Made by a program: the position numbers and the translations under genes. From a virus, in the IMG/VR virus record IMGVR_UViG_3300045988_087130, positions 25,785 to 89,784 of that record: a stretch of 64,000 nucleotides of DNA, one strand, 5' to 3'. Under the pieces are notes generated by a model. The model searched no databases. It worked only from the letters and a program-made list of their open reading frames with translations, and was not told the DNA's origin. This document shows, piece by piece, positions 6,361-35,498 of this stretch (position 1 is its first letter; every line of letters starts with the position of its first letter).

Positions 6361-6810
6361 GAAAGCCATAATCTACCAAATACCCACGTCTCAAAGCCGT
6401 GCGATGTCCAGCGTGGGGGCGGGATTGTAAACTTAGGAGTCGCACGGCTTTATTTGGAAGTTTCCATAACTACAAATAGCCTATCGCTAATGGTTGTTCC
6501 CTTGGGCAAGGAGATAGTTAATACCGCATCGTAAGATGTGAACACTTAAAATTTGCCGACAACCATTGGCAAAAGCCCATCAGTCAGCGACAGAACCCCT
6601 TGGGCAAGGTGGGAATGGTGCACAGTCTTCAAATTCGCATCTGTCGCTGACAAACGGATGAGTGGCATTGGCAACTGAAAGCAATGCGACCCTCGCAAAC
6701 TTGGAGCGGATTTTCTGATTAAACATTCCGTGTACTGAGTCACTGGGGAGGATTTGGCACCAACAAGGGTTTAAATCCCTTGTCATCCACTAATTTTAAA
6801 AGGTTAAATT
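6361..6810. other. ORF-free GC-rich structured element (candidate structured ncRNA or replication origin)
   Basis: No convincing ORF on either strand; perfect inverted repeats AAAGCCGTGCGA/TCGCACGGCTTT and GTCAGCGACAG/CTGTCGCTGAC; direct repeat CCCTTGGGCAAGG x2; GC content above flanks. Confidence 0.3.
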
Positions 6811-7038
6811 ATGAATGAGTATTGTGAGAATTTGATTTCAAATGGAGTTCCTAGCTGGATAGTAGAGGAGGCTTATAAATTTACAATTGAGCCTTTGAAA
6901 TCAACAGAAGGCTTGGTAGGAATTGATAAGGAAAATAGTGAGCTATATAGAAATGTCATTATCGCAGCCTATATTGAGGGTGCTAGTGCTACATTGGTAA
7001 AAGTGCAAAAATATTATGGCGGTGAGGAACATAGTTAG
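6811..7038 (+). CDS. hypothetical protein
   Basis: 75-aa ORF. Confidence 0.4.
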   Translation: MNEYCENLISNGVPSWIVEEAYKFTIEPLKSTEGLVGIDKENSELYRNVIIAAYIEGASATLVKVQKYYGGEEHS

Positions 7039-7255
7039 ACAATGGAACGAGGCAACTGAAGGATATTCGTACCGCTTCAAAGGTGGAGATATTTTCCTCC
7101 GGTTGGTTAAGGCTAATGGTAGTTATGAATTGCGTAACCCTATAGGTTATGGTGTTCAAGTAGTCATATGCAAAGACTTGGATGAAGCAGATGCAAAAGC
7201 CAAGGAAGTGCTAGAAGCGTTTTTTGAAGACAAAGTTAACATAAAAGTTATTTGA
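7016..7255 (+). CDS. hypothetical protein
   Basis: 79-aa ORF overlapping upstream gene by 23 nt; start uncertain. Confidence 0.35.
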   Translation: MAVRNIVRQWNEATEGYSYRFKGGDIFLRLVKANGSYELRNPIGYGVQVVICKDLDEADAKAKEVLEAFFEDKVNIKVI

Positions 7256-7527
7256 TTATGGACTTAGAATTATTGATAGATAAGATAGACTTGAGTCAAG
7301 GTGCAAGGCAGATAGCCAAGCAAGCCTTGGAGTTGGGAATAAAATGCCAAAAGGATAGTGCTTGGCATCCGGTAGAAGAATTACCTGAGCACAACAGACG
7401 CATTGTCGGTCTGACCAAGGTTCGCAAGCGTTTCAAGCATCTGAATTTCTTAGGCGAGGAATGGTGGAAGAAGTTCACGAAGTCAAACGCCATCTATAAA
7501 TGGGCTTATGTTGACGATCTAGTTTGA
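7252..7527 (+). CDS. hypothetical protein
   Basis: 91-aa ORF. Confidence 0.4.
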   Translation: MIMDLELLIDKIDLSQGARQIAKQALELGIKCQKDSAWHPVEELPEHNRRIVGLTKVRKRFKHLNFLGEEWWKKFTKSNAIYKWAYVDDLV

Positions 7528-11060: not shown

Positions 11061-12041
11061 ATGACAGGATTCAAAAGTGAAAATGTCGAATTGGAGGCTT
11101 TGCCAGTAGCCTCATCAGTTTTAAACAACTTCAAAGAAGGAGGTGTTAGAGTTGTAGAAATTATTGAGCATGATGGCAAGCAAGCCGTGAACGCAAGGGA
11201 ACTACACCAAAAGTTGGGAAACAAGAGGCAATTTGCCGATTGGATTAAGCAGCGAATTGAGCAGTATGGATTTGTTGAAAATCAAGACTATGAGGTTTTT
11301 CACAAAATTGTGAAAAACTCAAATGATGTTGAAAATCAAGACTTTTCTTCATCTGATAATTTTGCCAAACGAGAAAAGGGAGGCCGAAGTCGTGTAGAGT
11401 ATGCTCTTTCGCTAGACATGGCTAAGGAGCTGTGCATGGTTGAGAACAACGAGAAAGGCAGGATGATTCGCAAGTACTTCATTGAAGTTGAGAAGAAGGC
11501 TAGAACACAAAATCCATTTACTATTCCTCAGACTTATTCTGAAGCCTTGCTTCTTGCTGCAAACCAAGCAAAGCAAATCGAAAAGCAGCAATTGGCATTG
11601 GAGCAGAAGAAAATTGAGAATGACAAGCTGGTTGCAGATGGTAAGCGCAAGGACGCAACCATAGTACGTATGAAGCCTAAAGAGGTATTCACGGATGCGG
11701 TTGCAGGTAGCAAGGGCAATTGCCTAGTTGGTGAGGTTGCGAAGTTGATAACTCAAAATGGCTACAAGATTGGCGAAAAGCAATTTTTTGCTTGGTTGCG
11801 GGATAATGGCTACCTTGGAAAGAAAGGAGAGCGTTACAATATTCCTAACCAGCAGTATATGGGTAAGAATCCTTTCTTTTATATCAAGAGAGGTGTGCGT
11901 CAGGGTGATAATGGAGTGTTGCACACGACAAGTACAACAATGCTGACACCAAAGGGACAGATTTATTTTGTAAACAAGTTCCTTGGAAAAGGAGGTTTAC
12001 AAGGTGATTTGTTTGCGAATGGTGAGGCACACGATAAATAA
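11061..12041 (+). CDS. phage antirepressor (AntA-like N-terminus, KilAC C-terminal domain)
   Basis: AVNARELHQKLGNKRQFADWIKQRIEQYGFVENQDYEV fits the AntA/AntB pattern; C-terminal GSKGNCLVGEVAKLITQNGYKIGEKQFFAWLRDNGYL fits KilAC/ANT. Confidence 0.7.
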   Translation: MTGFKSENVELEALPVASSVLNNFKEGGVRVVEIIEHDGKQAVNARELHQKLGNKRQFADWIKQRIEQYGFVENQDYEVFHKIVKNSNDVENQDFSSSDNFAKREKGGRSRVEYALSLDMAKELCMVENNEKGRMIRKYFIEVEKKARTQNPFTIPQTYSEALLLAANQAKQIEKQQLALEQKKIENDKLVADGKRKDATIVRMKPKEVFTDAVAGSKGNCLVGEVAKLITQNGYKIGEKQFFAWLRDNGYLGKKGERYNIPNQQYMGKNPFFYIKRGVRQGDNGVLHTTSTTMLTPKGQIYFVNKFLGKGGLQGDLFANGEAHDK

Positions 12042-12959: not shown

Positions 12960-13364
12960 ATGAAAGTATTATCAATTCGCCAGCCGTATGCTTGGTTAAT
13001 CTCTATCGGCTGCAAGACCATTGAAAACAGAACCTGGAATAGAAAGTTCCGTGGTCGCTTCCTTATTCATGCTAGCCAAGCCAAACCCGAAAAACTTGAC
13101 GGATGGCAGGAGAGCGCAATGAAGAAATATTGCCAAGAGCATGGTATTGTTATTCCGGACTTCAAAGACTTGCCAACGTCAGCCATTATCGGCAGCGTAG
13201 AGTTGGATGATATTCAATTCCATGAGGCTTATCCGGATGCGTTTGCTGAAGATTTTCAGTATCACTGGTTCTTGAAGAATGCTAAATTGTTCGATGAGCC
13301 GATTAGAAACGTCAAAGGCAAGTTGTTCCTCTGGGATTATGAGTACAATGAAACCGAAAAGTAA
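12960..13364 (+). CDS. ASCH-domain protein
   Basis: N-terminal LSIRQPYAWLISIGCKTIENR matches the ASCH signature. Confidence 0.55.
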   Translation: MKVLSIRQPYAWLISIGCKTIENRTWNRKFRGRFLIHASQAKPEKLDGWQESAMKKYCQEHGIVIPDFKDLPTSAIIGSVELDDIQFHEAYPDAFAEDFQYHWFLKNAKLFDEPIRNVKGKLFLWDYEYNETEK

Positions 13365-14515: not shown

Positions 14516-15118
14516 ATGAAAACGATTTCATTGAAATTGGTAGGCACTAAGCCTTTGATGGTTCACAATCCAAGAGTGGTTGACCCATTCGACAAGTACA
14601 AGAAACTTTTGCAGCCATTGACTAGCAAGAAGACAAAGACGGATGATGATTTATTGGAAATCTGCCGTTTGCAGTTCCTTGCCTCCTTGTATTATCGCAA
14701 TGGTGAGTACGTATTGCCACAATCTCACGTTGAGGGAAGTTTCCAAGCTGCTGCAAAAGAGCGTAAGTTGGGTAAGAAGTTTGAACGTTCCTTTGGTCTT
14801 TATGGTGATGGTGTGTTGCAATTCAAGGACAACAAGAAGACTCCTGAAGAACTTTTTGAGGTTGGGCGCACGAAAGAGGGATATTTTGACCCTAGTACAT
14901 CTTATGTAGATACGAGAGCTTGTGGCATCAAAGGCTCAATCAAAGTACCAGCGACAAGAGCCATCTTTCACGAATGGGAGACCGAGGTTACTTGTTGGTT
15001 TGACGAGACTCAGCTTAACGAGGATGAGGTTTTGCAAGTGGCAGAAGTCGCTGGTCTTCGTTATCACGTTGGTACTTACAGAAAATTGTATGGTGCTTTT
15101 AAAGTAGAAAGAAAATAA
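14516..15118 (+). CDS. hypothetical protein (possible tail assembly component, upstream of tape measure)
   Basis: 200-aa ORF; position only. Confidence 0.4.
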   Translation: MKTISLKLVGTKPLMVHNPRVVDPFDKYKKLLQPLTSKKTKTDDDLLEICRLQFLASLYYRNGEYVLPQSHVEGSFQAAAKERKLGKKFERSFGLYGDGVLQFKDNKKTPEELFEVGRTKEGYFDPSTSYVDTRACGIKGSIKVPATRAIFHEWETEVTCWFDETQLNEDEVLQVAEVAGLRYHVGTYRKLYGAFKVERK

Positions 15119-15230
15119 AATAGTAATTTGTATGATTTGGTGCGGAGAAGTCGGGTGAAGTCGAGTCATGTAAAGAGCGGTGAAGTTTAGTGAAGTGCGG
15201 TGTAGTGTAGTAAGGTATAGTTTAGAAGAA
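15119..15230. repeat. GT-rich degenerate direct-repeat island (GTGAAGT / GTGTAGT / GGTATAGT units)
   Basis: GGTGAAGTCGAGTC, GGTGAAGTTTAGTGAAGTGCGGTGTAGTGTAGTAAGGTATAGTTTAG; no plus-strand ORF. Confidence 0.45.
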
Positions 15231-15273
15231 CACAATGATGGTCATAGGTGAGGTTCGACTCCTCACCATTGTG
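15231..15273 (+). other. tRNA-like minihelix 1 (acceptor stem + T-arm only)
   Basis: CACAAT-GATGGTCATA-GGTGAGG-TTCGACT-CCTCACC-ATTGTG: 6-bp acceptor-like stem enclosing a 7-bp stem with canonical T-loop TTCGACT. Confidence 0.35.
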
Positions 15274-15363
15274 CAAAATATGTGGGGTACGGTACGGTAT
15301 GGTTCTGTCAGGTGGAGTCGAGTATGGTTTAGTACGGTATGGTGAGGTTTGGTAGAGACGAAC

Positions 15364-15406
15364 TCCCTACATGGTGGTTATCTAAGGTTCGATTCCTTGG
15401 TAGGGA
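15364..15406 (+). other. tRNA-like minihelix 2 (acceptor stem + T-arm only)
   Basis: TCCCTAC-ATGGTGGTTATC-TAAGG-TTCGATT-CCTTG-GTAGGGA: 7-bp acceptor-like stem plus T-arm with loop TTCGATT. Confidence 0.35.
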
Positions 15407-15427
15407 GCAATATTAAAAAATGAGGAT

Positions 15428-15907
15428 ATGAAAGAAGATACGAAAAATGTTTTTGATGGTTTTGATGTTTTTGATGGTCTGGAGGAAGAAATTCTTTCTA
15501 CATTTAAAGATGGTCAATTGATTTCGCATGAATGGTTGAAATTAAAGTTTGGTATTACCCCTTTATGTTGGGATGATTACAAGGATATTCAGAAGTTATT
15601 CCAAGCTAAGGATAAGCAGCAGTTTTATTATATGACCTTGGTAGATAAATTGCGTTGGGATATGTTGAAGCGAAAGAAATGCTATCTTAAAAATGTCTAT
15701 AGTTATGGCTATATGATTGTTTCAAAGGAAGAACAGGCTGAATATGGATTCACTCAAACTATGAAGGAAATCAAGGAGTCTTTGCGCAAAGGTGCTTTGA
15801 TAATAGGGAATGTGAGACCTTTGCCAATGTTTGCTGTATCATCCTATAATGATATTAAAAGCCGTTTCAGCACAATAAAAAGCGTGTTATCTTCGTTAAA
15901 GTTATAG
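15428..15907 (+). CDS. hypothetical protein
   Basis: 159-aa ORF immediately before the terminator and tape measure. Confidence 0.45.
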   Translation: MKEDTKNVFDGFDVFDGLEEEILSTFKDGQLISHEWLKLKFGITPLCWDDYKDIQKLFQAKDKQQFYYMTLVDKLRWDMLKRKKCYLKNVYSYGYMIVSKEEQAEYGFTQTMKEIKESLRKGALIIGNVRPLPMFAVSSYNDIKSRFSTIKSVLSSLKL

Positions 15908-15958
15908 GCTGTCGTGATTTGATGGTCTTTATATATAGAAGAAAATAAGTAAGAAATG

Positions 15959-15991
15959 AGCCTTCTGCATGTGAATGTGGAAGGCTTTTTT
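15959..15991 (+). terminator. rho-independent terminator
   Basis: AGCCTTC-loop-GAAGGCT followed by TTTTTT. Confidence 0.5.
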
Positions 15992-16099
15992 GTGTCTATA
16001 CCTTAATCTTTGCACTTAAATCTTTAGTGAAATTGCACGCCCTTATTCTTTCGTTATTCCTTTGATTATTAGCTAATTTTGCCAATAAAATTATAAAAT

Positions 16100-19000
16100 A
16101 TGGCAGAATTAAGATTCGATGTCAAAGCGAATTTCGAGCAGGTTACGAAACTTCGTTCCGAGTGTGAAAAATTGAGGGCTGAGTTGTTGAAGACCAATAA
16201 GTCAACCGACCCAGCTATTGTTGCGGATTTGACGGAAAAATATGCAGATGCAAGTAATCGCTTAAAGGACTTGACACAAGCTGCTTCAAGAGCCGCTTAC
16301 GTGATGTCTTCCGAGTTTAATAAAAGGATGCAGTCAGCATCAAAAGAAGTTTATAGCTATGAACTTCAAATGCAAGCAACAAAAGACCGTATAGAGAAAA
16401 TCCAACAGCAAATCACGAACAAGAGATTAACTCTTGGAGTAACTACGGATAAGTCATCCATAGATTCTTTACAGAAGAATATTGACTATTTGAAAGGTTC
16501 TTTGGCAGGACAAACTGCGCAATTAAAGAACCTAGAAGGAGGTGCTGTCGGTGCTCGTCAGACCTTGGAGAACATGCGGAATGAGTATGTTTTGTATGCA
16601 GGTTCAGCAAATCCGGCAAAAGATGCCACAAATATGTTGACCGATAGCATGAACCAAATGATAGAACGCATGAAGTCTGCTCCTACTGCCGGAGAGGGTA
16701 TGTCTAGCTTGTTTCAAAGGGTAACTGGTGATGCTCACATGCTTTCGGCTGCTTTGCTTGGCGGTTTAGGATTTGAACAACTGGCAAGTAGTATTTTCAA
16801 TACTCGCTCTCAATTCCAACAACTGGAAATATCTTTCAATACCATGCTTGGTAGTGCGGATAAGTCAAAGCAGTTAATGGATGAATTAATCGCTACAGCC
16901 GCAAAAACGCCTTTCGATATGTCCAGCATTACGAGTGGCGCAAAACAACTTTTGGCTTATGGTACGGAAGCGAAAGACGTAAATAAAACTCTAGTCCAGC
17001 TTGGCGATATTGCTTCGGGATTGAATATTCCGCTTGGAGACCTCGTTTACCTTTACGGAACGACCCTCGCACAAGGAAAAGTCTTTACAATGGACTTGCG
17101 TCAGTTCATGGGAAGAGGTGTTCCTTTGGCAGAAGAGTTGGGTAAAATCTTGCACCAAAACACAACGGAGGTTCAAGAGTCTGTTTCCAAGGGTAAGGTG
17201 ACATCAGACATCTTCAAGGAAGCCATCGCTAACATGACGCAAGCTGGCAGTCGCTTCGGAGGCCTGATGGAACAACAATCAAAGACCTTGGAGGGTCAGT
17301 GGAGTAACATTGGCGACTCCATCCAGCAAGCGTTCAACGAAATCGGCAAAAAATCCGAGGGCGTGTTCTCTAGTGGATTGTCAATTATTTCTGCTATGGT
17401 CGAGAATTGGCAGGAAGTCATTAAAGTAATTGGCGTTGCGGTCGTTGCCGTTGGCAGTTATCGTGCATCATTAATGGCGGCTGCTTCTATCCGTAAGGCA
17501 GAAGAGGCTCAGCAAGCCGATGATATGATGAAGGGGATTGATGCTGAAATCAAGCGTTTGCAAGACTTAGAAAACTCAAACTACAAGTCATTGGGTAAGG
17601 ATAAAAAGCAAGAACGAGTAAATAAACAACAAGACTTGGCAAGTGTTGTTGGAGATACCACTGTGTCCGATGATTTTGTAAAGGCAAGATTAGATGCAGC
17701 AGAGCAAGAGGGCATTATTACGGCACAAATGCGTTCCCAATTAGAGATGAAACGTGAACTCTTGCAGGCTCAGCAACAAGCAACAGCACAAAGCCAGATA
17801 GAACTTGACGAAGAAAAGAGGAAGACCGAGGAACTGCGTCAACAAAAAATAGAGTCTCTTAAAGATGATTTGAAGACTACTACAGAGAAAATATCAAATC
17901 TTGATGATAGGGATGTAGAGTTGGCTAGACAATATACAGCAGCCTTGAATGATTTGCAAGATGCCCAAGATGCCTTTGCTGAGGCTCAAAAATTAGTTGA
18001 GGAAACCGCTGATGGTGCAAACTTAGCTTTTGACGCAGAGGGTAATGCCGTGAATGCACTAGAAGCAAAGGAACGTTTGGCCACCGCTGCGAAGAAAGTG
18101 AATACTGCTCAAACAAATGTTTCGACAATTGCAAGTCAGCAAAGAGGAACTGCGCTTATTCGTGAGCAATTACAAGAGAGACAAGCAACACTACAAACGA
18201 AGTTGAATTCTGTTAGTCAAGCTACCAATACGACTACGAAAAAGGCTAGTACTTTAGCTACGGCTGCTTCAACGGTAAAAAATGCCATCCATACTGCAAG
18301 TGTTAAAATAATGACAACTGCTGAATTAATGCTTAGTAATGCTGTAAAATCCACAACTATGGCCTTAAAGGGAATGTGGGCTGCTATGCTTGCAAATCCG
18401 ATTACTGGTATTATAACATTGGTAACAACGCTTGCTAGTGCCGTTGCAATGTTCGGAGGTGAAGAGGAAGATATTTCTATTGACACAAAGCATTTTGGAG
18501 ATTCTGCTGAAAACACAAGGGCGAAAGTTGATGGCTTGCTTAACGTAATGAGGTCTTCTAAGGAAGGAACTGATGCTTACAACAAAGCTAAAGAAGAACT
18601 TATCCAAACATACGAGCAGTTCGGGATTAAGTGTGATGCCGAAAAGGACAATTTAACAACACTAAAAGGAAAGCATGATGAATTTGTTGCAACCTTACAA
18701 TTGGAGAATGCTGAAAGAGAAAAGGCTAATGCTTTAATGTCTGCCACTTCCCAATATACAGAAGCAAGAAACAAAGAAGATGACAATTTTAGCAAAGACT
18801 TATCCGGTCATTGGTATCAAGGTGGGCAACATGTAGATAAGGAAGATATAACATCAATACAAATGATGTATAATTCCATAGCAACAGATGAGGTTTTAGA
18901 TAGGCTGGCTAAGTTGAAGCAAAGAGTAGATGATAGCACATTGTCTTACAAGGAGCATATAGATGCTTTTAATATTTACACAAATGCAGTTAAAAAGACA

Positions 19001-22000
19001 TTTGCGCCTATTGATTCGTTCTTAGAAAAACAACATTACAATATCGCAACTATAGAGAATACTGACCATTCGATATTGGAGCATACGAGTAATCTTTCAA
19101 AATTAAAGATAAGTTATAAAAACGCAGAGGATGCGATAATGAAGGCGGCTGCTGAAAATGTAGATTGGAATAATACACAGGCTAGGTCACAATGGGTAGC
19201 TCAGCAAAATAAACAAAGCATAGATGCCTTAACTTCCTCAACAGACCAGCTTATTTCTATATGGAATCAGGAATATGGATTAAATTTGAAAATCCATTAT
19301 GATGATACAGAAATTCCAAGTTGGATGAAATCTTTAACGGATAAGCAGTTGCAATCTTTGATTAATAGACGTAAGGCAGATTTAAATAGGCAAGAGCAAT
19401 ACCGAACTAATCATAAAGGAAGTAAATTGCTGACAAAGCAAGGAAATCAGCTAAGAGACGAAAATGCCAATAGGCTTGATGTCGCTATGGCTGGTTCTAT
19501 TCTGAAAGATAGAGAGGCGAAAAGAAAAGCCGATGCAAATAAGCCGAAGGAAACGACAAAGAAAGCTACACCTAAGAAAACAGGTGCAACGGATGACCCA
19601 CAAGCAAGAGCGTATGAACGCAAGAAGGCTGAGGAAGACTATTCCAAGTCTATTTCATCCTATTCGGAGAAAGCCAGTGATGAGTTGTCAAAGCGAAGAA
19701 CGGAATTGATTAAGAATGAGACCGAAAAGGAGATTGCTCAAATTAATATGTCTTCAGACAAGGAGAAAAAGGCTATAGAGGATTCGATTGACAAACTCGT
19801 TGAGGCTAAGAAGAAGAAAGACCAGATCGTTTGGGTAAATTCGGGAAAAGGTCGTAAAGCCAACATGTGGAAACAGGGTAAGTCCGATGCGGAATACCGC
19901 AAAGAGGTATTGGGCACACAAATGGTTGACGACAAGGGTAATCATCTTGGGAAGACCATTGGGCAGAACTCAGAAGACCAAATTGCCTTGATTGAGAAAC
20001 AGAGGCAATTAAAGCTGAAGGAAATCCAGCAAGCAGAGATTAAGGACATGTTGGATTTCATGAAGCAATACGGCAGCTTAGAACAACAACGTTATGCTAT
20101 TCTGAAAGAATACACGGACAAGATAGACCTTGCTAGAGAGAAAGGTGATACTTTTGGCGCAGCGAGTGCGGAAATGGAGATGAACGACCAGTTGAAGAAG
20201 TTGAATTTTACGGATTTCAAAGATTCAATCAATTGGGATGTTGTCTTTCAGGATATGAACCGATTGAGTATTCCTTATCTTGAAGACCTTCGCAAGAAGA
20301 TGAAGGAGTTGCTTGGTTCGGGTACGTTGGAAATTGATGATATGAAAACCGTATCTGACCAAATCTACAAGATTGATGATGCGATTTCCGAGCAGAAGGA
20401 TAGATGGGGATTGGTTAATGATGCAGTCCGTGAACATCGTAGGCTTATTGATGAGGCGAAGGATGCGCAAGACCGATTGGCACAAGCTAGAAAGGTGGAG
20501 TTTGATGTCAAGGCTGACAACATGAGCCAAAGGAGAAAAATCCAAGGTGTGTTTGCGGAAAGTGGGATTAATATAGATACCAGTAATATTACTTCTGCCA
20601 ATAAGGACAAACTAATGGGTTCTACCAAGAATCTCAGTGTAAGCCAAACGGAGAAGTTACGTAAGCTTTTTGATGATTTGGCGGTTTCAGAGGTTAAGGT
20701 TGGAAAGGCAACAAAGGAAGTCGGAAAGGCGCAGGAAGAAGCCAAGGTAAAGCAGGATGCCGCAAAGAAGAGCTTGCACGATACTATCGAGGAATGGGCT
20801 GAGGGTTTGAGTAAAATCCAAGAGAAATTGAAAGACCTTCCTGGGTTAGTCGATGCTTTGGGTCTCGGAAACACAGGCTTTGGTAAAGCTGTGAATAACG
20901 GAATGGATGCATTGAACAGTGGAACACAAGCCTTTTCTGATTTTGCAAGCGGAAACTACATAGGTGCGGCTATGAATGGAATAAAAACCATTGGCTCGTT
21001 GGGCAAGATGTTCGGTATTGGTGGAGGTAATGGTGCAGAAGTTGCGAAGAAAACAGAAGAGCTGACCGAGAGCAATGATAGATTAATGTATTCCATTGAT
21101 AAGTTAAAAGAGTCTATTGACAAATCTTCCGGTTATACAGCCGTTAGCAACTATAATGCAGCTTACGATGCTCAAAAGCAGGTTAATACCCAAACGATGG
21201 ATATTCTCAAAACACAGATGGGGTATCATGGGGCACACCATTCAAATGCTTCTTATTGGAATCTTTCTGCACAAGATTATGCGGCAATCAATAAGACTTT
21301 GGCTGAGCAAAGTAAGATAAGGGGTGGTTATACTAATTCTTCGATAAACAAGGTCAATTCCTTGGAGGATATATACAAGCTCACTCCAGAGCAGATGGCT
21401 GACATTCGTACACATAATGCGGATGTATGGAAGAACATGACAGACCAAGGCAAGTATGATAAGACGGAATATTGGGAGCAATATACAGAACTGGCGGGAA
21501 AACTAGAGGAGTTGACGGAGCAAATCAATGAGAATTTGACTCAAACAACCTTTGATTCGATGAAGAGTGACTTCATAAACAATCTTATGGATATGAGCAA
21601 GTCTGCAAAGGATTTTTCTAATGACTTCACTACAATGCTCAACCAGTCGATGCTTAACTTCGCTTTGGGAGACCTTATGAATAAAAAGCTTAAGCCTCTT
21701 TATGATAGCTGGGCAAACAAGATGAAGGAGAATGGAGGAAGGCAGCTCACGCCAACCGAATTGAATAATCTTAAAGAAGAGTATGATAAGATAGTTCAAG
21801 AGGGTTTGGCTATTCGTGATAATATTGCTGATATTACGGGTTACAAGCAATCTTACGAGCAGTCCGCTTCTTCCGGTTCTTTTGAATCAATGAGCCAAGA
21901 TACAGGAGAAGAGTTGAATGGTCGTTTCACAGCGGTACAAATTGCTACAGAGGGAACGTATGAGGAAACAAAGCTCATAAATACCAAGTTGGATGCTATT

Positions 22001-22228
22001 GCGGCTCGTGATGGTGGCACAGAGGGTAGCTTACTAACAGCTAGCGTGAATACTATTATGGGTAATGTGGGTAACATTTGGTTAGCCGTTGATGAGGATA
22101 GGACTATCCTTGCACAAAGCTTGATGTACTTGCAGTCGATTGATGAGCGACAAGAGCGATGGCATAAGCCTATGCTGCAAGCATTCAATGATATTCACGA
22201 ATTAAAAGACAAGATGAGCAGATTGTAA
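16100..22228 (+). CDS. tail tape measure protein
   Basis: 2042-aa ORF, long coiled-coil-prone Q/E/K/A-rich stretches, by far the largest gene; the internal minus-strand ORFs are spurious. Confidence 0.75.
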   Translation: MAELRFDVKANFEQVTKLRSECEKLRAELLKTNKSTDPAIVADLTEKYADASNRLKDLTQAASRAAYVMSSEFNKRMQSASKEVYSYELQMQATKDRIEKIQQQITNKRLTLGVTTDKSSIDSLQKNIDYLKGSLAGQTAQLKNLEGGAVGARQTLENMRNEYVLYAGSANPAKDATNMLTDSMNQMIERMKSAPTAGEGMSSLFQRVTGDAHMLSAALLGGLGFEQLASSIFNTRSQFQQLEISFNTMLGSADKSKQLMDELIATAAKTPFDMSSITSGAKQLLAYGTEAKDVNKTLVQLGDIASGLNIPLGDLVYLYGTTLAQGKVFTMDLRQFMGRGVPLAEELGKILHQNTTEVQESVSKGKVTSDIFKEAIANMTQAGSRFGGLMEQQSKTLEGQWSNIGDSIQQAFNEIGKKSEGVFSSGLSIISAMVENWQEVIKVIGVAVVAVGSYRASLMAAASIRKAEEAQQADDMMKGIDAEIKRLQDLENSNYKSLGKDKKQERVNKQQDLASVVGDTTVSDDFVKARLDAAEQEGIITAQMRSQLEMKRELLQAQQQATAQSQIELDEEKRKTEELRQQKIESLKDDLKTTTEKISNLDDRDVELARQYTAALNDLQDAQDAFAEAQKLVEETADGANLAFDAEGNAVNALEAKERLATAAKKVNTAQTNVSTIASQQRGTALIREQLQERQATLQTKLNSVSQATNTTTKKASTLATAASTVKNAIHTASVKIMTTAELMLSNAVKSTTMALKGMWAAMLANPITGIITLVTTLASAVAMFGGEEEDISIDTKHFGDSAENTRAKVDGLLNVMRSSKEGTDAYNKAKEELIQTYEQFGIKCDAEKDNLTTLKGKHDEFVATLQLENAEREKANALMSATSQYTEARNKEDDNFSKDLSGHWYQGGQHVDKEDITSIQMMYNSIATDEVLDRLAKLKQRVDDSTLSYKEHIDAFNIYTNAVKKTFAPIDSFLEKQHYNIATIENTDHSILEHTSNLSKLKISYKNAEDAIMKAAAENVDWNNTQARSQWVAQQNKQSIDALTSSTDQLISIWNQEYGLNLKIHYDDTEIPSWMKSLTDKQLQSLINRRKADLNRQEQYRTNHKGSKLLTKQGNQLRDENANRLDVAMAGSILKDREAKRKADANKPKETTKKATPKKTGATDDPQARAYERKKAEEDYSKSISSYSEKASDELSKRRTELIKNETEKEIAQINMSSDKEKKAIEDSIDKLVEAKKKKDQIVWVNSGKGRKANMWKQGKSDAEYRKEVLGTQMVDDKGNHLGKTIGQNSEDQIALIEKQRQLKLKEIQQAEIKDMLDFMKQYGSLEQQRYAILKEYTDKIDLAREKGDTFGAASAEMEMNDQLKKLNFTDFKDSINWDVVFQDMNRLSIPYLEDLRKKMKELLGSGTLEIDDMKTVSDQIYKIDDAISEQKDRWGLVNDAVREHRRLIDEAKDAQDRLAQARKVEFDVKADNMSQRRKIQGVFAESGINIDTSNITSANKDKLMGSTKNLSVSQTEKLRKLFDDLAVSEVKVGKATKEVGKAQEEAKVKQDAAKKSLHDTIEEWAEGLSKIQEKLKDLPGLVDALGLGNTGFGKAVNNGMDALNSGTQAFSDFASGNYIGAAMNGIKTIGSLGKMFGIGGGNGAEVAKKTEELTESNDRLMYSIDKLKESIDKSSGYTAVSNYNAAYDAQKQVNTQTMDILKTQMGYHGAHHSNASYWNLSAQDYAAINKTLAEQSKIRGGYTNSSINKVNSLEDIYKLTPEQMADIRTHNADVWKNMTDQGKYDKTEYWEQYTELAGKLEELTEQINENLTQTTFDSMKSDFINNLMDMSKSAKDFSNDFTTMLNQSMLNFALGDLMNKKLKPLYDSWANKMKENGGRQLTPTELNNLKEEYDKIVQEGLAIRDNIADITGYKQSYEQSASSGSFESMSQDTGEELNGRFTAVQIATEGTYEETKLINTKLDAIAARDGGTEGSLLTASVNTIMGNVGNIWLAVDEDRTILAQSLMYLQSIDERQERWHKPMLQAFNDIHELKDKMSRL

Positions 22229-25778: not shown

Positions 25779-25805
25779 GGTGAGGCACACCCGAACAACT
25801 GCACA
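25779..25805 (+). promoter_or_regulatory. GGTGAGGCACACC..AACAACTGCAC element
   Basis: Exact motif 10 nt after the 25768 stop. Confidence 0.4.
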
Positions 25806-34888: not shown

Positions 34889-34961
34889 GCTGCATTAGAC
34901 AAGTGGTTAAGTCGCCAGTTTTTCACGCTGGTATTCAAAGGTTCGAATCCTTTATGCAGTA
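34889..34961 (+). tRNA. tRNA-Glu (anticodon TTC)
   Basis: Hand-folded: acceptor GCTGCAT/ATGCAGT, anticodon stem CCAGT/GCTGG with loop TTTTCAC, T-arm AAAGG-TTCGAAT-CCTTT. Confidence 0.6.
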
Positions 34962-34967
34962 CAAATT

Positions 34968-35038
34968 TGCCCTATGGTGTAATGGCAACACTACAGGTTT
35001 TGGTTCTGTCATTAGTGGTTCGAATCCGCTTGGGGCAA
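34968..35038 (+). tRNA. tRNA-Gln (anticodon TTG)
   Basis: Acceptor TGCCCTA/TGGGGCA, anticodon stem ACAGG/TCTGT with loop TTTTGGT, T-loop TTCGAAT. Confidence 0.55.
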
Positions 35039-35069
35039 CAAGGTGATATTTGATATGTATTCCACAAAT

Positions 35070-35154
35070 GGTGCAATATTCAAGCGGCTAAAGAAGACTG
35101 ACTGTAAATCAGTTCCCATTGCGGGTTCGGTGAGTTCGAATCTCTCTTGCACCA
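35070..35154 (+). tRNA. tRNA-Tyr (anticodon GTA), type II with long variable arm
   Basis: Acceptor GGTGCAA/TTGCACC; D-loop AGCGGCTAAA; anticodon loop CTGTAAA; variable arm CCC-ATTGC-GGG; T-loop TTCGAAT; 85 nt. Confidence 0.65.
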
Positions 35155-35178
35155 CAAGAGTAACTTTGTCAGATTACG

Positions 35179-35250
35179 GGGAATGTAGCTCAGAAGTAGA
35201 GCACTTGGTTCGTAACCAAGGGGGCATTGGTGCAACTCCAATCATTCCTT
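35179..35250 (+). tRNA. tRNA-Thr (anticodon CGT)
   Basis: Acceptor GGGAATG/CATTCCT, D-arm GCTC-AGAAGTA-GAGC, anticodon stem CTTGG/CCAAG with loop TTCGTAA; unusual T-loop TGCAACT. Confidence 0.5.
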
Positions 35251-35253
35251 TAC

Positions 35254-35325
35254 GCTTTCGTAGCTCAGTGGCAGAGCATAGGATTTTTAATCCTAGGGTC
35301 GAAGGTTCGAATCCTTCCGTTGGCA
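35254..35325 (+). tRNA. tRNA-Lys (anticodon TTT)
   Basis: D-arm TAGCTCAGTGGCAGAGC, anticodon stem TAGGA/TCCTA with loop TTTTTAA, T-arm GAAGG-TTCGAAT-CCTTC; acceptor stem has two internal mismatches, so ends are uncertain. Confidence 0.5.
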
Positions 35326-35498
35326 CAATGATACACAAGAAGAGAGCCGTGATGTTTGTTCTGTTGGAATCTCGGACATCTGTCAACGGATAACGTAGGA
35401 AGCAGATGGGGCGAATAAAGTTGTGAATAAGCTTATGAACTAGGGAAGCAAGCGGAATGGCCTCTTTTTTGTGCTTCATTTGATGGTTTAACGAAAAA

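Follow-up and report, generated by a model that had tools for sequence, protein, structure and literature searches.

A VIPR locus of a gut phage whose guide-RNA arrays end in tRNA-like minihelices

Systems of the Viral Interference Programmable Repeat (VIPR) kind were reported in 2026, in two bioRxiv preprints (10.64898/2026.04.26.720920 and 10.64898/2026.04.26.720927; hereafter the VIPR preprints), as a CRISPR-like weapon that phages direct against rival phages and as a possible ancestor of CRISPR effectors. According to the text and figure legends of these preprints, the Vipr protein polymerizes along a guide RNA (vrRNA) of 9–16 YNNGG repeats, whose NN dinucleotides are hypervariable and serve to read double-stranded DNA, with skips of one nucleotide that fall mostly at the wobble position of codons. 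At the 3′ end of the repeats stands an invariable, structured tail, which is a pseudoknot in the clade of phage SUSP1. Further repeat consensuses named in the same texts are NNNGG, YNNNG and NNNNG, and the array layouts comprise pseudoknot tails, staggered arrays, hammerhead-interspersed arrays and single-vrRNA loci, with the maturation of vrRNAs barely addressed.

Here we describe a locus in a stretch of 64,000 nucleotides from IMG/VR record IMGVR_UViG_3300045988_087130 (positions 25,785 to 89,784 of that record), which we refer to as the window and whose coordinates we use throughout. We are highly confident that positions 14516–15907 constitute a VIPR locus of a tailed phage, and thus a new member of a system already known from the VIPR preprints. 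The locus runs in the order vipr, vrRNA1, vrRNA2 and a candidate accessory gene for a 159-residue protein, with a tape-measure gene directly downstream. The GT-rich island between the two protein-coding genes (15119–15427) is the VIPR guide-RNA array, and its two guide RNAs each end, on the 3′ side, in a conserved minihelix. Each of these tails is, almost certainly, a conserved structure that mimics a tRNA's top half and is fused to the 3′ end of a guide tract. Judged by the text and figure legends of both VIPR preprints, in which the words 'tRNA' and 'RNase' are absent, the tRNA-like tail appears to be an undescribed architectural variant, with the reservation that a figure could draw one without naming it. 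The nearest genomic relatives of the window sit in Bacteroidales bins, which points to a Bacteroidales host, and the locus extends VIPR to abundant phages of human-gut Bacteroidales.

The Vipr protein and its pentamer guide tracts

The gene that opens the locus (vipr, 14516–15118, plus strand) encodes a 200-residue protein to which homology assigns the role of a RAMP/Cas7-like subunit that polymerizes along the vrRNA. A profile built from 23 homologs matches the PDB entry 36pp, 'SUSP1 Vipr protein', over its full length with an E value of 9.7e-43, and the single sequence matches the same entry over residues 1–198 with an E value of 8.3e-21. The AlphaFold2 (AF2) model, with a pLDDT of 90.7, matches the Csm3, Cmr4 and Cas7 subunits of the RAMP superfamily. 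The open reading frame (ORF) falls in phrog_4652, and homologs are present in 39 human-gut phage contigs of IMG/VR; remote homologs with 24–29% identity adjoin pentamer arrays in unrelated phage contigs. An assignment as a tail tube protein, guessed from the position of the ORF before the tape-measure gene, is ruled out by the 36pp match, by the Csm3/Cas7-type fold and by homologs that lie outside tail modules.

Apart from the minihelices, the island consists of two arrays of a U-N-N-R-G unit that keep a strict period of five nucleotides, with 19 phase-locked units in vrRNA1 (15136–15230, plus strand) and 16 in vrRNA2 (15283–15362, plus strand). GT dinucleotides stand in a single phase in both (16/19 in the first array and 15/15 in the second), and neither strand of the window holds a match to such arrays elsewhere. 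Each array runs directly into one minihelix, and the island is therefore made of two array-plus-minihelix modules. The unit fits YNNNG, one of the alternative consensuses named in the text of the VIPR preprints. In vrRNA1 the NN positions of units 1–17 form the noncontiguous guide, and the final units, UUUAG AAGAA, form a conserved junction with the tail. The guide of vrRNA2 reads GG AC AC AU UC CA GG CG AU UU AC AU GA UU, followed by the junction units UAGAG ACGAA. Relatives whose Vipr is 96% identical have entirely different NN positions and pentamer numbers but keep the phase and the RGU motif. The stop codon of vipr is followed by one, two or at least four array-plus-minihelix modules in every one of the 39 gut-phage contigs.

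An earlier note on this DNA, made from the sequence alone, had described the island as ORF-free with GT-rich direct repeats. We find no plus-strand ORF of at least 40 codons in 15119–15427, in agreement with that description, and the repeats are real. They were under-described, in that they are two strictly phased pentamer arrays that each abut a minihelix; the note overlooked that these repeats, as vrRNA guide tracts, are the main functional part of the island, and that the upstream ORF is the Vipr effector. Several other readings of the arrays were dropped once that ORF had been identified as Vipr. These were a binding site for a TRAP-like ring protein, an assembly origin of the potexvirus type with five nucleotides per subunit, G-quadruplex-forming G2N3 repeats, a ribosome standby or Shine–Dalgarno-like site, an iteron or pac site acting at the DNA level, and a decayed microsatellite. 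The logic of five nucleotides per protein subunit that lay behind the assembly-origin idea proved correct.

When the viral collection was scanned with nothing but the pentamer pattern, 120 stretches came back; true microsatellites, in giant-virus bins and elsewhere, were also among the matches and were set aside as noise. Many of the stretches are degenerate (NNGGT)n or (NNAGT)n arrays in unrelated contigs, where they are intergenic and always on the coding strand. A GC-rich IMG/VR contig (L193) carries, between positions 2604 and 12922, 13 arrays of pentamers, each with 13 to 68 units and up to ~400 nt long, all on one strand of a 14.6-kb sequence that also holds two adjacent vipr-like ORFs (6364–6693 and 6773–7348). 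These arrays are far denser and longer than the 9–16 vrRNA units given in the published text.

Structure, covariation and distribution of the tRNA-like tails

The first minihelix (15231–15273) is composed of CACAAT, a linker of 10 nt, the hairpin GGTGAGG-TTCGACT-CCTCACC and ATTGTG, and the second (15364–15406) of TCCCTAC, a linker of 12 nt, the hairpin TAAGG-TTCGATT-CCTTG and GTAGGGA. Both are exactly where and as the earlier note had placed and drawn them, and the second even extends by one C:G pair to 15363–15407. Including the C that follows each helix, the tails occupy 15231–15274 (ending in C15274) and 15363–15408 (ending in C15408) on the plus strand, and the 8-nt spacer AAAAUAUG (15275–15282, plus strand) separates the first tail from the first unit of vrRNA2. 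Tract and tail together, vrRNA1 spans 15136–15274 and vrRNA2 15283–15408. Read as RNA, tail 1 stacks a 7-bp acceptor-like helix and a 6-bp T stem into 13 bp, closed by the T-loop UUCGACU, and its linker AUGGUCAUAG contains a D-loop-like GG. Tail 2 reads CUCCCUA, the linker CAUGGUGGUUAU, the T arm CUAAGG UUCGAUU CCUUGG and finally UAGGGAG. The linkers of 10–13 nt cannot hold D and anticodon arms, which excludes a cloverleaf. The fold also departs from the SUSP1-type hairpin and pseudoknot, as it is a nested acceptor/T stack of 13 bp with a 7-nt T-loop, in which the only possible tertiary contact is an elbow of the tRNA type between the GG and the T-loop.

This geometry is constant across clades with 52–58% Vipr identity, in which the sequences of the stems are quite different. 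It comprises a continuous 13-bp acceptor and T stack that can be read as 7+6, a UUCGAnn loop, a linker of 10–13 nt and a C right after the helix. The stack measures 13 bp in most members and 12 bp in L036_3626, L196_4098 and L216, and the junction just 5′ of the helix is conserved as UAGAGA(C/A)GAA. To quantify the covariation, we drew on the window, the family of gut phages, genome bins of Bacteroidales and two loci of Actinobacteria, which together gave 33 distinct tails. The tails were aligned without gaps as T-loop-anchored 34-mers with the linker excised (alignment A3), which replaced a MAFFT alignment of full tails (A2) in which the 5′ strands were out of register. In A3, 97.4% of the cells of the 13-bp stack pair, compared with 46–51% when the 3′ partner is slid by 1–3 columns; because members had been gathered with a pairing criterion, this percentage is partly circular, a limitation that does not touch the range of pair types seen at each position. 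Twelve of the 13 pairs change on both sides (166 cells, compared with 41 in shuffles), and the covariation score of 1.06, compared with 0.22, was reached by none of 500 shuffles. The linker carries GG at positions 4–5 or 5–6 in 32 of the 33 tails, and these bases (G11 and G12) are invariant in alignment A5. The two guanines are probably equivalents of G18 and G19 of the D-loop, which would dock on the T-loop to form a tRNA elbow.

A covariance model built from ten tails, none of them from the window, finds exactly two sites in the 64 kb, namely tail 2 (37.9 bits, E=1.9e-8) and tail 1 (33.3 bits, E=4.4e-7). The next match has an E value of 0.78, and the five true tRNA genes of the phage score at most 11.5 bits. 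Together with the covariation, this independent selection bears out the claim that the minihelices are not a product of chance. Folding of the single sequences against shuffled controls, a check that the note had proposed and that we ran, is unremarkable (z = -1.8 and -2.0); the shuffle test is weak, and it is the covariation that decides. Neither element in 15119–15427 is called a tRNA by ARAGORN or by Rfam, which find only the five ordinary tRNA genes at 34889–35326; Rfam assigned the elements to no family at gathering or E-value thresholds, and a permissive Rfam scan of 15050–15480 (E<=10) returned no tRNA, no ribozyme family and nothing else that was meaningful.

In the loci that we searched, the tRNA-like tail is restricted to the Bacteroidales-phage clade, apart from its recurrence in two loci of Actinobacteria. 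Of 35 Vipr loci that were retrieved from genomes by their protein, five Bacteroidales loci (L194–L197 and L222) have it, as do the actinobacterial loci L216 (Piscicoccus) and L226 (Haloechinothrix); it was not found in the Prevotella locus L198 or in the proteobacterial or other loci of that set. A covariance-model search of 100 array-bearing viral stretches (L074–L173) found it only in the gut-phage family of the window. Of the 292 loci searched, none holds the element anywhere but at the 3′ end of a pentamer array in a Vipr locus. In L216 (Piscicoccus intestinalis NBRC 104926), arrays with three such tails lie upstream of vipr at 2599–2934; their stacks are of 12 bp, the helix is followed by A and not C, and the Vipr is 31% identical. 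Given that identity, the L216 tail may represent an independent origin of the structure. L196 is labeled 'Candidatus Bathyarchaeota archaeon', and its minihelix sequences and covariance-model scores are the same as those of the Bacteroidales bin L222; the contig has probably been mis-binned, in which case its VIPR is not archaeal.

A further group of gut-phage contigs (L075, L081, L100, L107, L108, L111, L146, L157, L158, L161, L169, L175, L181, L187 and L190) carries an array of 15–16 AGU/GGU units that runs straight into an intrinsic terminator hairpin, GAGCCATCC-TTYG-GGGTGGCTC-T5, as at L075 8056–8190. The terminator is followed by the motif TTGTTAATTGTGGTTAATATAAC, which also precedes the tape-measure gene in relatives of the window. 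No Vipr homolog was found in the stretches of this group that were examined, and its array may be an orphan vrRNA with the terminator as its tail. Array endings across VIPR clades thus include a pseudoknot and a hammerhead, both described in the text of the VIPR preprints, as well as the intrinsic terminator and the tRNA mimic seen here. That the endings are clade-specific supports a boundary-defining role of the tail.

Guide targets and neighboring genes

We applied the published NNx rule, with its skip of one nucleotide, to both guides and used permuted guides as nulls. A gapped pattern of 11 units of vrRNA1, which specifies 22 bases, has exact matches in 64 gut-phage contigs, for which we estimate a chance expectation of well under one match in the collection. 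At the site in these contigs, units 2–13 match at 24/24 guide bases. The target is always in frame within an ORF of ~1700 residues that encodes a tape-measure protein of phrog_9959 (target peptide KAERDRQKAEFDA), and the skipped third positions vary between contigs with every NN position kept. The C-terminal half of the tape-measure protein of these phages is 57% identical to that of the window (gene 16100–22228; PF20155 and phrog_9959). No Vipr, arrays or homolog of the 159-residue protein was found in 530 kb of these target phages.

The guide of vrRNA2 matches 25–26 of its 28 bases at one site of the GTTISQGRIFTMD type in the tape-measure genes of related phages, and the maximum for permuted guides is 21–22. 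Where the best targets mismatch, the changes are switches of the synonymous type, which the code is unable to skip, AGA versus CGN for arginine and AGC versus TCN for serine. The window's own tape-measure gene contains a copy of this motif (17057–17097, plus strand) that matches vrRNA2 at 23/28 bases (82%), just over the line of >80% that the text of the VIPR paper sets for high-quality targets. Self-targeting by vrRNA2 seems to be avoided by these five mismatches only.

Guides of relatives match the window in turn. A site at the start codon of its tape-measure gene (16097–16143, plus strand) is matched, with one-nucleotide skips, by vrRNA1 of L003 (30/32), of L008 (27/28) and of L015 (32/40), for which the null maxima are 22–28; the best of these matches reach 94–96%. 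A relative's guide matches 17699–17754 at 31/38, above its null. Within the tape-measure ORF these sites are in frame, and at 16097–16143 the skip falls on the wobble position. In addition, a vrRNA of L002 matches 16026–16078 at 29/36 (null maximum 26), a noncoding site between the terminator-like hairpin at 15958–15987 and the tape-measure start that resembles the site of a guide aimed at a promoter or 5′ untranslated region. By their matches, the targets of both guides of the window are tape-measure genes in competing gut phages, and the guides of relatives are directed at the tape-measure start of this phage. Since its own guides match rivals and the guides of relatives match the window, tape-measure targeting is, on the evidence of these matches, reciprocal within the family, in line with the inter-phage conflict described for SUSP1. 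One point weighs against this account. Units 14–17 of vrRNA1, those nearest its 3′ end, match none of the targets found, although R-loop formation in SUSP1 starts at the 3′ end of the guide, according to the text of the VIPR preprints (10.64898/2026.04.26.720920 and 10.64898/2026.04.26.720927). Exact-pattern scans of viral contigs with the 3′ halves of both guides gave no match, whereas the 5′ half of vrRNA1 succeeded. Reciprocal targeting of this kind among co-circulating phages amounts to a concrete map of inter-phage conflict in the gut, and the VIPR locus itself adjoins the tape-measure gene, the alleles of which the guides of the family discriminate.

The ORF that follows the array (15428–15907, plus strand) encodes 159 residues and belongs to phrog_5926, a family of unknown function, with no Pfam match; its AF2 model has a pLDDT of 50 and is unusable. 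Homologs adjoin vipr in the distant loci L150 (25% identity), L162 and L189, and this synteny makes the ORF a candidate vipr-accessory (vap) gene. A few kilobases upstream of the locus lie an ORF of the AntA/KilAC antirepressor type (11061–12041) and an ORF with an ASCH domain (12960–13364), for neither of which a link to the VIPR locus is established.

Guide maturation and comparison with known systems

No terminator-like site lies between vipr, the two vrRNAs and the 159-residue ORF, and the first strong intrinsic-terminator-like hairpin downstream of vipr is at 15958–15987 (plus strand). The vrRNAs are therefore embedded in a polycistronic transcript, and since relatives carry from one to at least four array-plus-tail modules in tandem, the guides would need processing. 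Judged by their predicted fold, the minihelices keep features that are recognized by RNase P, RNase Z and the CCA-adding enzyme. The phage also has five tRNA genes (34889–35326; Glu-UUC, Gln-UUG, Tyr-GUA, Thr-CGU and Lys-UUU), none of which encodes CCA. In the Glu, Gln, Tyr and Lys genes the discriminator A is followed by C-A-A, and the Thr gene ends in ...TT followed by ACG. The vrRNA tails are followed by C and an A/U-rich sequence, and the spacer AAAAUAUG opens like the C-A-A trailer of the phage tRNAs.

These features suggest a route of maturation. By homology to SUSP1 VIPR, one Vipr subunit would bind each pentamer, and the NN dinucleotides of the resulting ribonucleoprotein would read double-stranded DNA as NNx NNx and silence the target. 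The tails would act as boundary markers for host tRNA-maturation enzymes within the terminator-less transcript. The 3′ cut, one base beyond the helix, would fall to RNase Z or an equivalent enzyme, and a second cut, at the 5′ edge of the helix, might be made by RNase P. Guides of unit length would be freed in this way and parted from the mRNA downstream, and a tail that stayed attached would serve as a nuclease-resistant 3′ cap. Guides ending in tRNA mimics thus point to maturation by tRNA-processing enzymes of the host, a route parallel to that of the hammerhead arrays. The same job of freeing guides is done in other VIPR types by hammerhead ribozymes and in CRISPR by Cas6. We hold it to be somewhat better than an even bet that tRNA enzymes of the host process the guides by way of the tails. 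To the fuller proposal we assign a probability of roughly 0.45, namely that in the Bacteroidales-phage clade, and independently in Actinobacteria, guides are separated by mimics of the tRNA top half and matured by host RNase P and RNase Z from a late structural operon, with the minihelix perhaps CCA-tagged. If true, this would be a third, host-dependent route of guide-RNA biogenesis in the RAMP lineage, with neither a Cas6-like nuclease nor a ribozyme. The earlier note had suggested mRNA-processing punctuation as a function of the minihelices, and of its three ideas this one comes nearest; they do bound functional RNAs in a terminator-less transcript, although what they punctuate is guide RNAs and not mRNAs.

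Several points weigh against the proposal of cleavage by RNase P and RNase Z. In SUSP1 the mature vrRNA retains its tail, which caps the filament, according to the text of the VIPR preprints (10.64898/2026.04.26.720920 and 10.64898/2026.04.26.720927). A cut by RNase P would sever the tail from its guide, and the tail may accordingly be a retained cap and not an excised mark. The stack is mostly of 13 bp, compared with the canonical 12, and CCA is not encoded, which makes the quality of the tail as an RNase P substrate uncertain. The chief uncertainty is whether the tail is removed by RNase P or kept as a cap like the SUSP1 pseudoknot. On the latter view the tail would only be a retained 3′ cap that sets both the register and the end of the Vipr filament and blocks 3′ exonucleases, with boundaries set by other nucleases or by Vipr protection and no role for RNase P. 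We regard this as rather unlikely, though some of the data favor it. As the published text has it, the filament of SUSP1 ends in a resolved 3′ pseudoknot, and DNA engagement starts beside it. The conserved junction UAGAGA(C/A)GAA just 5′ of the helix is what would be expected of a handle for protein contact, and a stack of 13 bp is not the 12 bp measured by tRNA enzymes. Such a cap leaves the exact UUCGAnn T-loop, the D-loop-like GG and the tRNA-type trailer unexplained, unless tRNA-binding factors read the tail, and the very different tails that serve other clades argue against a specific contact between Vipr and the tail. A cap and processing are compatible, in that 3′ cleavage by RNase Z followed by retention of the tail satisfies both.

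The two remaining explanations fare considerably worse. One, which takes up the decoy idea of the earlier note, is that the minihelices are decoys or sponges for host tRNA-targeting nucleases or other tRNA-binding defense proteins, independent of the repeats. In its favor, toxins directed at the acceptor end of tRNAs exist, and this phage, like many that face tRNA-directed attack, has a tRNA cluster of its own. We consider this very improbable, given that the elements have no anticodon arm, are present in only one to four copies per genome and have stems that covary freely and mimic no particular host tRNA. They are, moreover, always fused to the 3′ end of a vrRNA tract beside vipr and are found nowhere else in the 292 loci or the window. 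A derivation from attachment-site tRNA remnants, an idea likewise raised in the note, or from degenerate 'armless' tRNA genes, is hardly credible, even though the T arm and the 3′ acceptor strand resemble the part that attP sites retain and the T-loop is canonical. The 5′ acceptor strand is present as well and covaries with the 3′ strand across the 33 distinct sequences; the position between vipr and the next gene is fixed even at 52–58% Vipr identity; and the tandem copies, one to at least four per locus, carry different stems. Both ARAGORN and the Rfam tRNA model came up empty, the latter even at E<=10, and the linker of 10–13 nt leaves no room for an anticodon arm.

Among described systems, the VIPR of the Escherichia phage SUSP1, the type II exemplar, is closest to the locus. 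As far as its published text goes, the two share a homologous Vipr, tandem pentamers with a conserved trinucleotide and a hypervariable NN, an array beside vipr and an invariable structured 3′ tail. They also share targets read with a one-nucleotide skip at the codon wobble position, located in structural genes (tape measure) of competing phage elements. The repeat differs, being U-N-N-R-G with AGU as common as GGU in place of YNNGG. A GGY-to-AGY substitution is among the motif perturbations reported to abolish silencing in SUSP1, whereas AGU is natural here, and the repeat code thus allows AGU to replace GGY naturally. The arrays have 16–19 units, compared with the published 9–16, and the tail is a tRNA-like acceptor/T-arm minihelix instead of a pseudoknot. 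The host indicated for the window is of the Bacteroidales, and the locus lies inside a tail-gene operon, directly upstream of the tape-measure gene. The hammerhead-interspersed vrRNA arrays of VIPR types I and V (fig. S19 of the published work, as described in its text) resemble the present arrays in alternating guides with a structured RNA element (guide-element-guide-element), by which the ends of neighboring vrRNAs are presumably set. A hammerhead is self-cleaving; the tRNA-like element lacks a catalytic core and would need host RNase P and RNase Z.

The likeness to class 1 CRISPR ribonucleoproteins lies in RAMP-fold subunits that polymerize on a guide with a fixed number of nucleotides per subunit and in a constant handle that caps a variable guide. 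The period is 5 nt here and 6 in CRISPR, the VIPR guide is noncontiguous, and the locus is phage-encoded, with no CRISPR array, Cas6 or adaptation genes. Among RNAs with a tRNA-like part, tRNA-processing enzymes define the end of the attached RNA in transfer-messenger RNA (tmRNA), in MALAT1 (mascRNA) and in the tRNA-miRNA transcripts of murine herpesvirus 68 (MHV68). With these elements the tails share an acceptor/T-arm stack and a reduced D-loop that would still form an elbow, in the absence of any sequence homology. In tmRNA, by contrast, the acceptor strands are ~300 nt apart and the RNA is aminoacylated.

Engineered polycistronic arrays of tRNAs and guide RNAs (tRNA-gRNA arrays) offer a parallel from technology. 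Xie, Minkenberg and Yang, in PNAS in 2015, reportedly used such arrays to have RNase P and RNase Z free unit-length Cas9 guides. In both cases guides are separated by tRNA structures within one transcript. The engineered arrays are man-made and use full tRNAs with Cas9 guides, whereas those of the gut phage are natural and use the top half only with VIPR guides, and their cleavage is the one that we infer. In the tRNA-like tails, the tRNA-gRNA arrays engineered for CRISPR multiplexing have a natural counterpart, one that suggests compact multiplexed VIPR tools.

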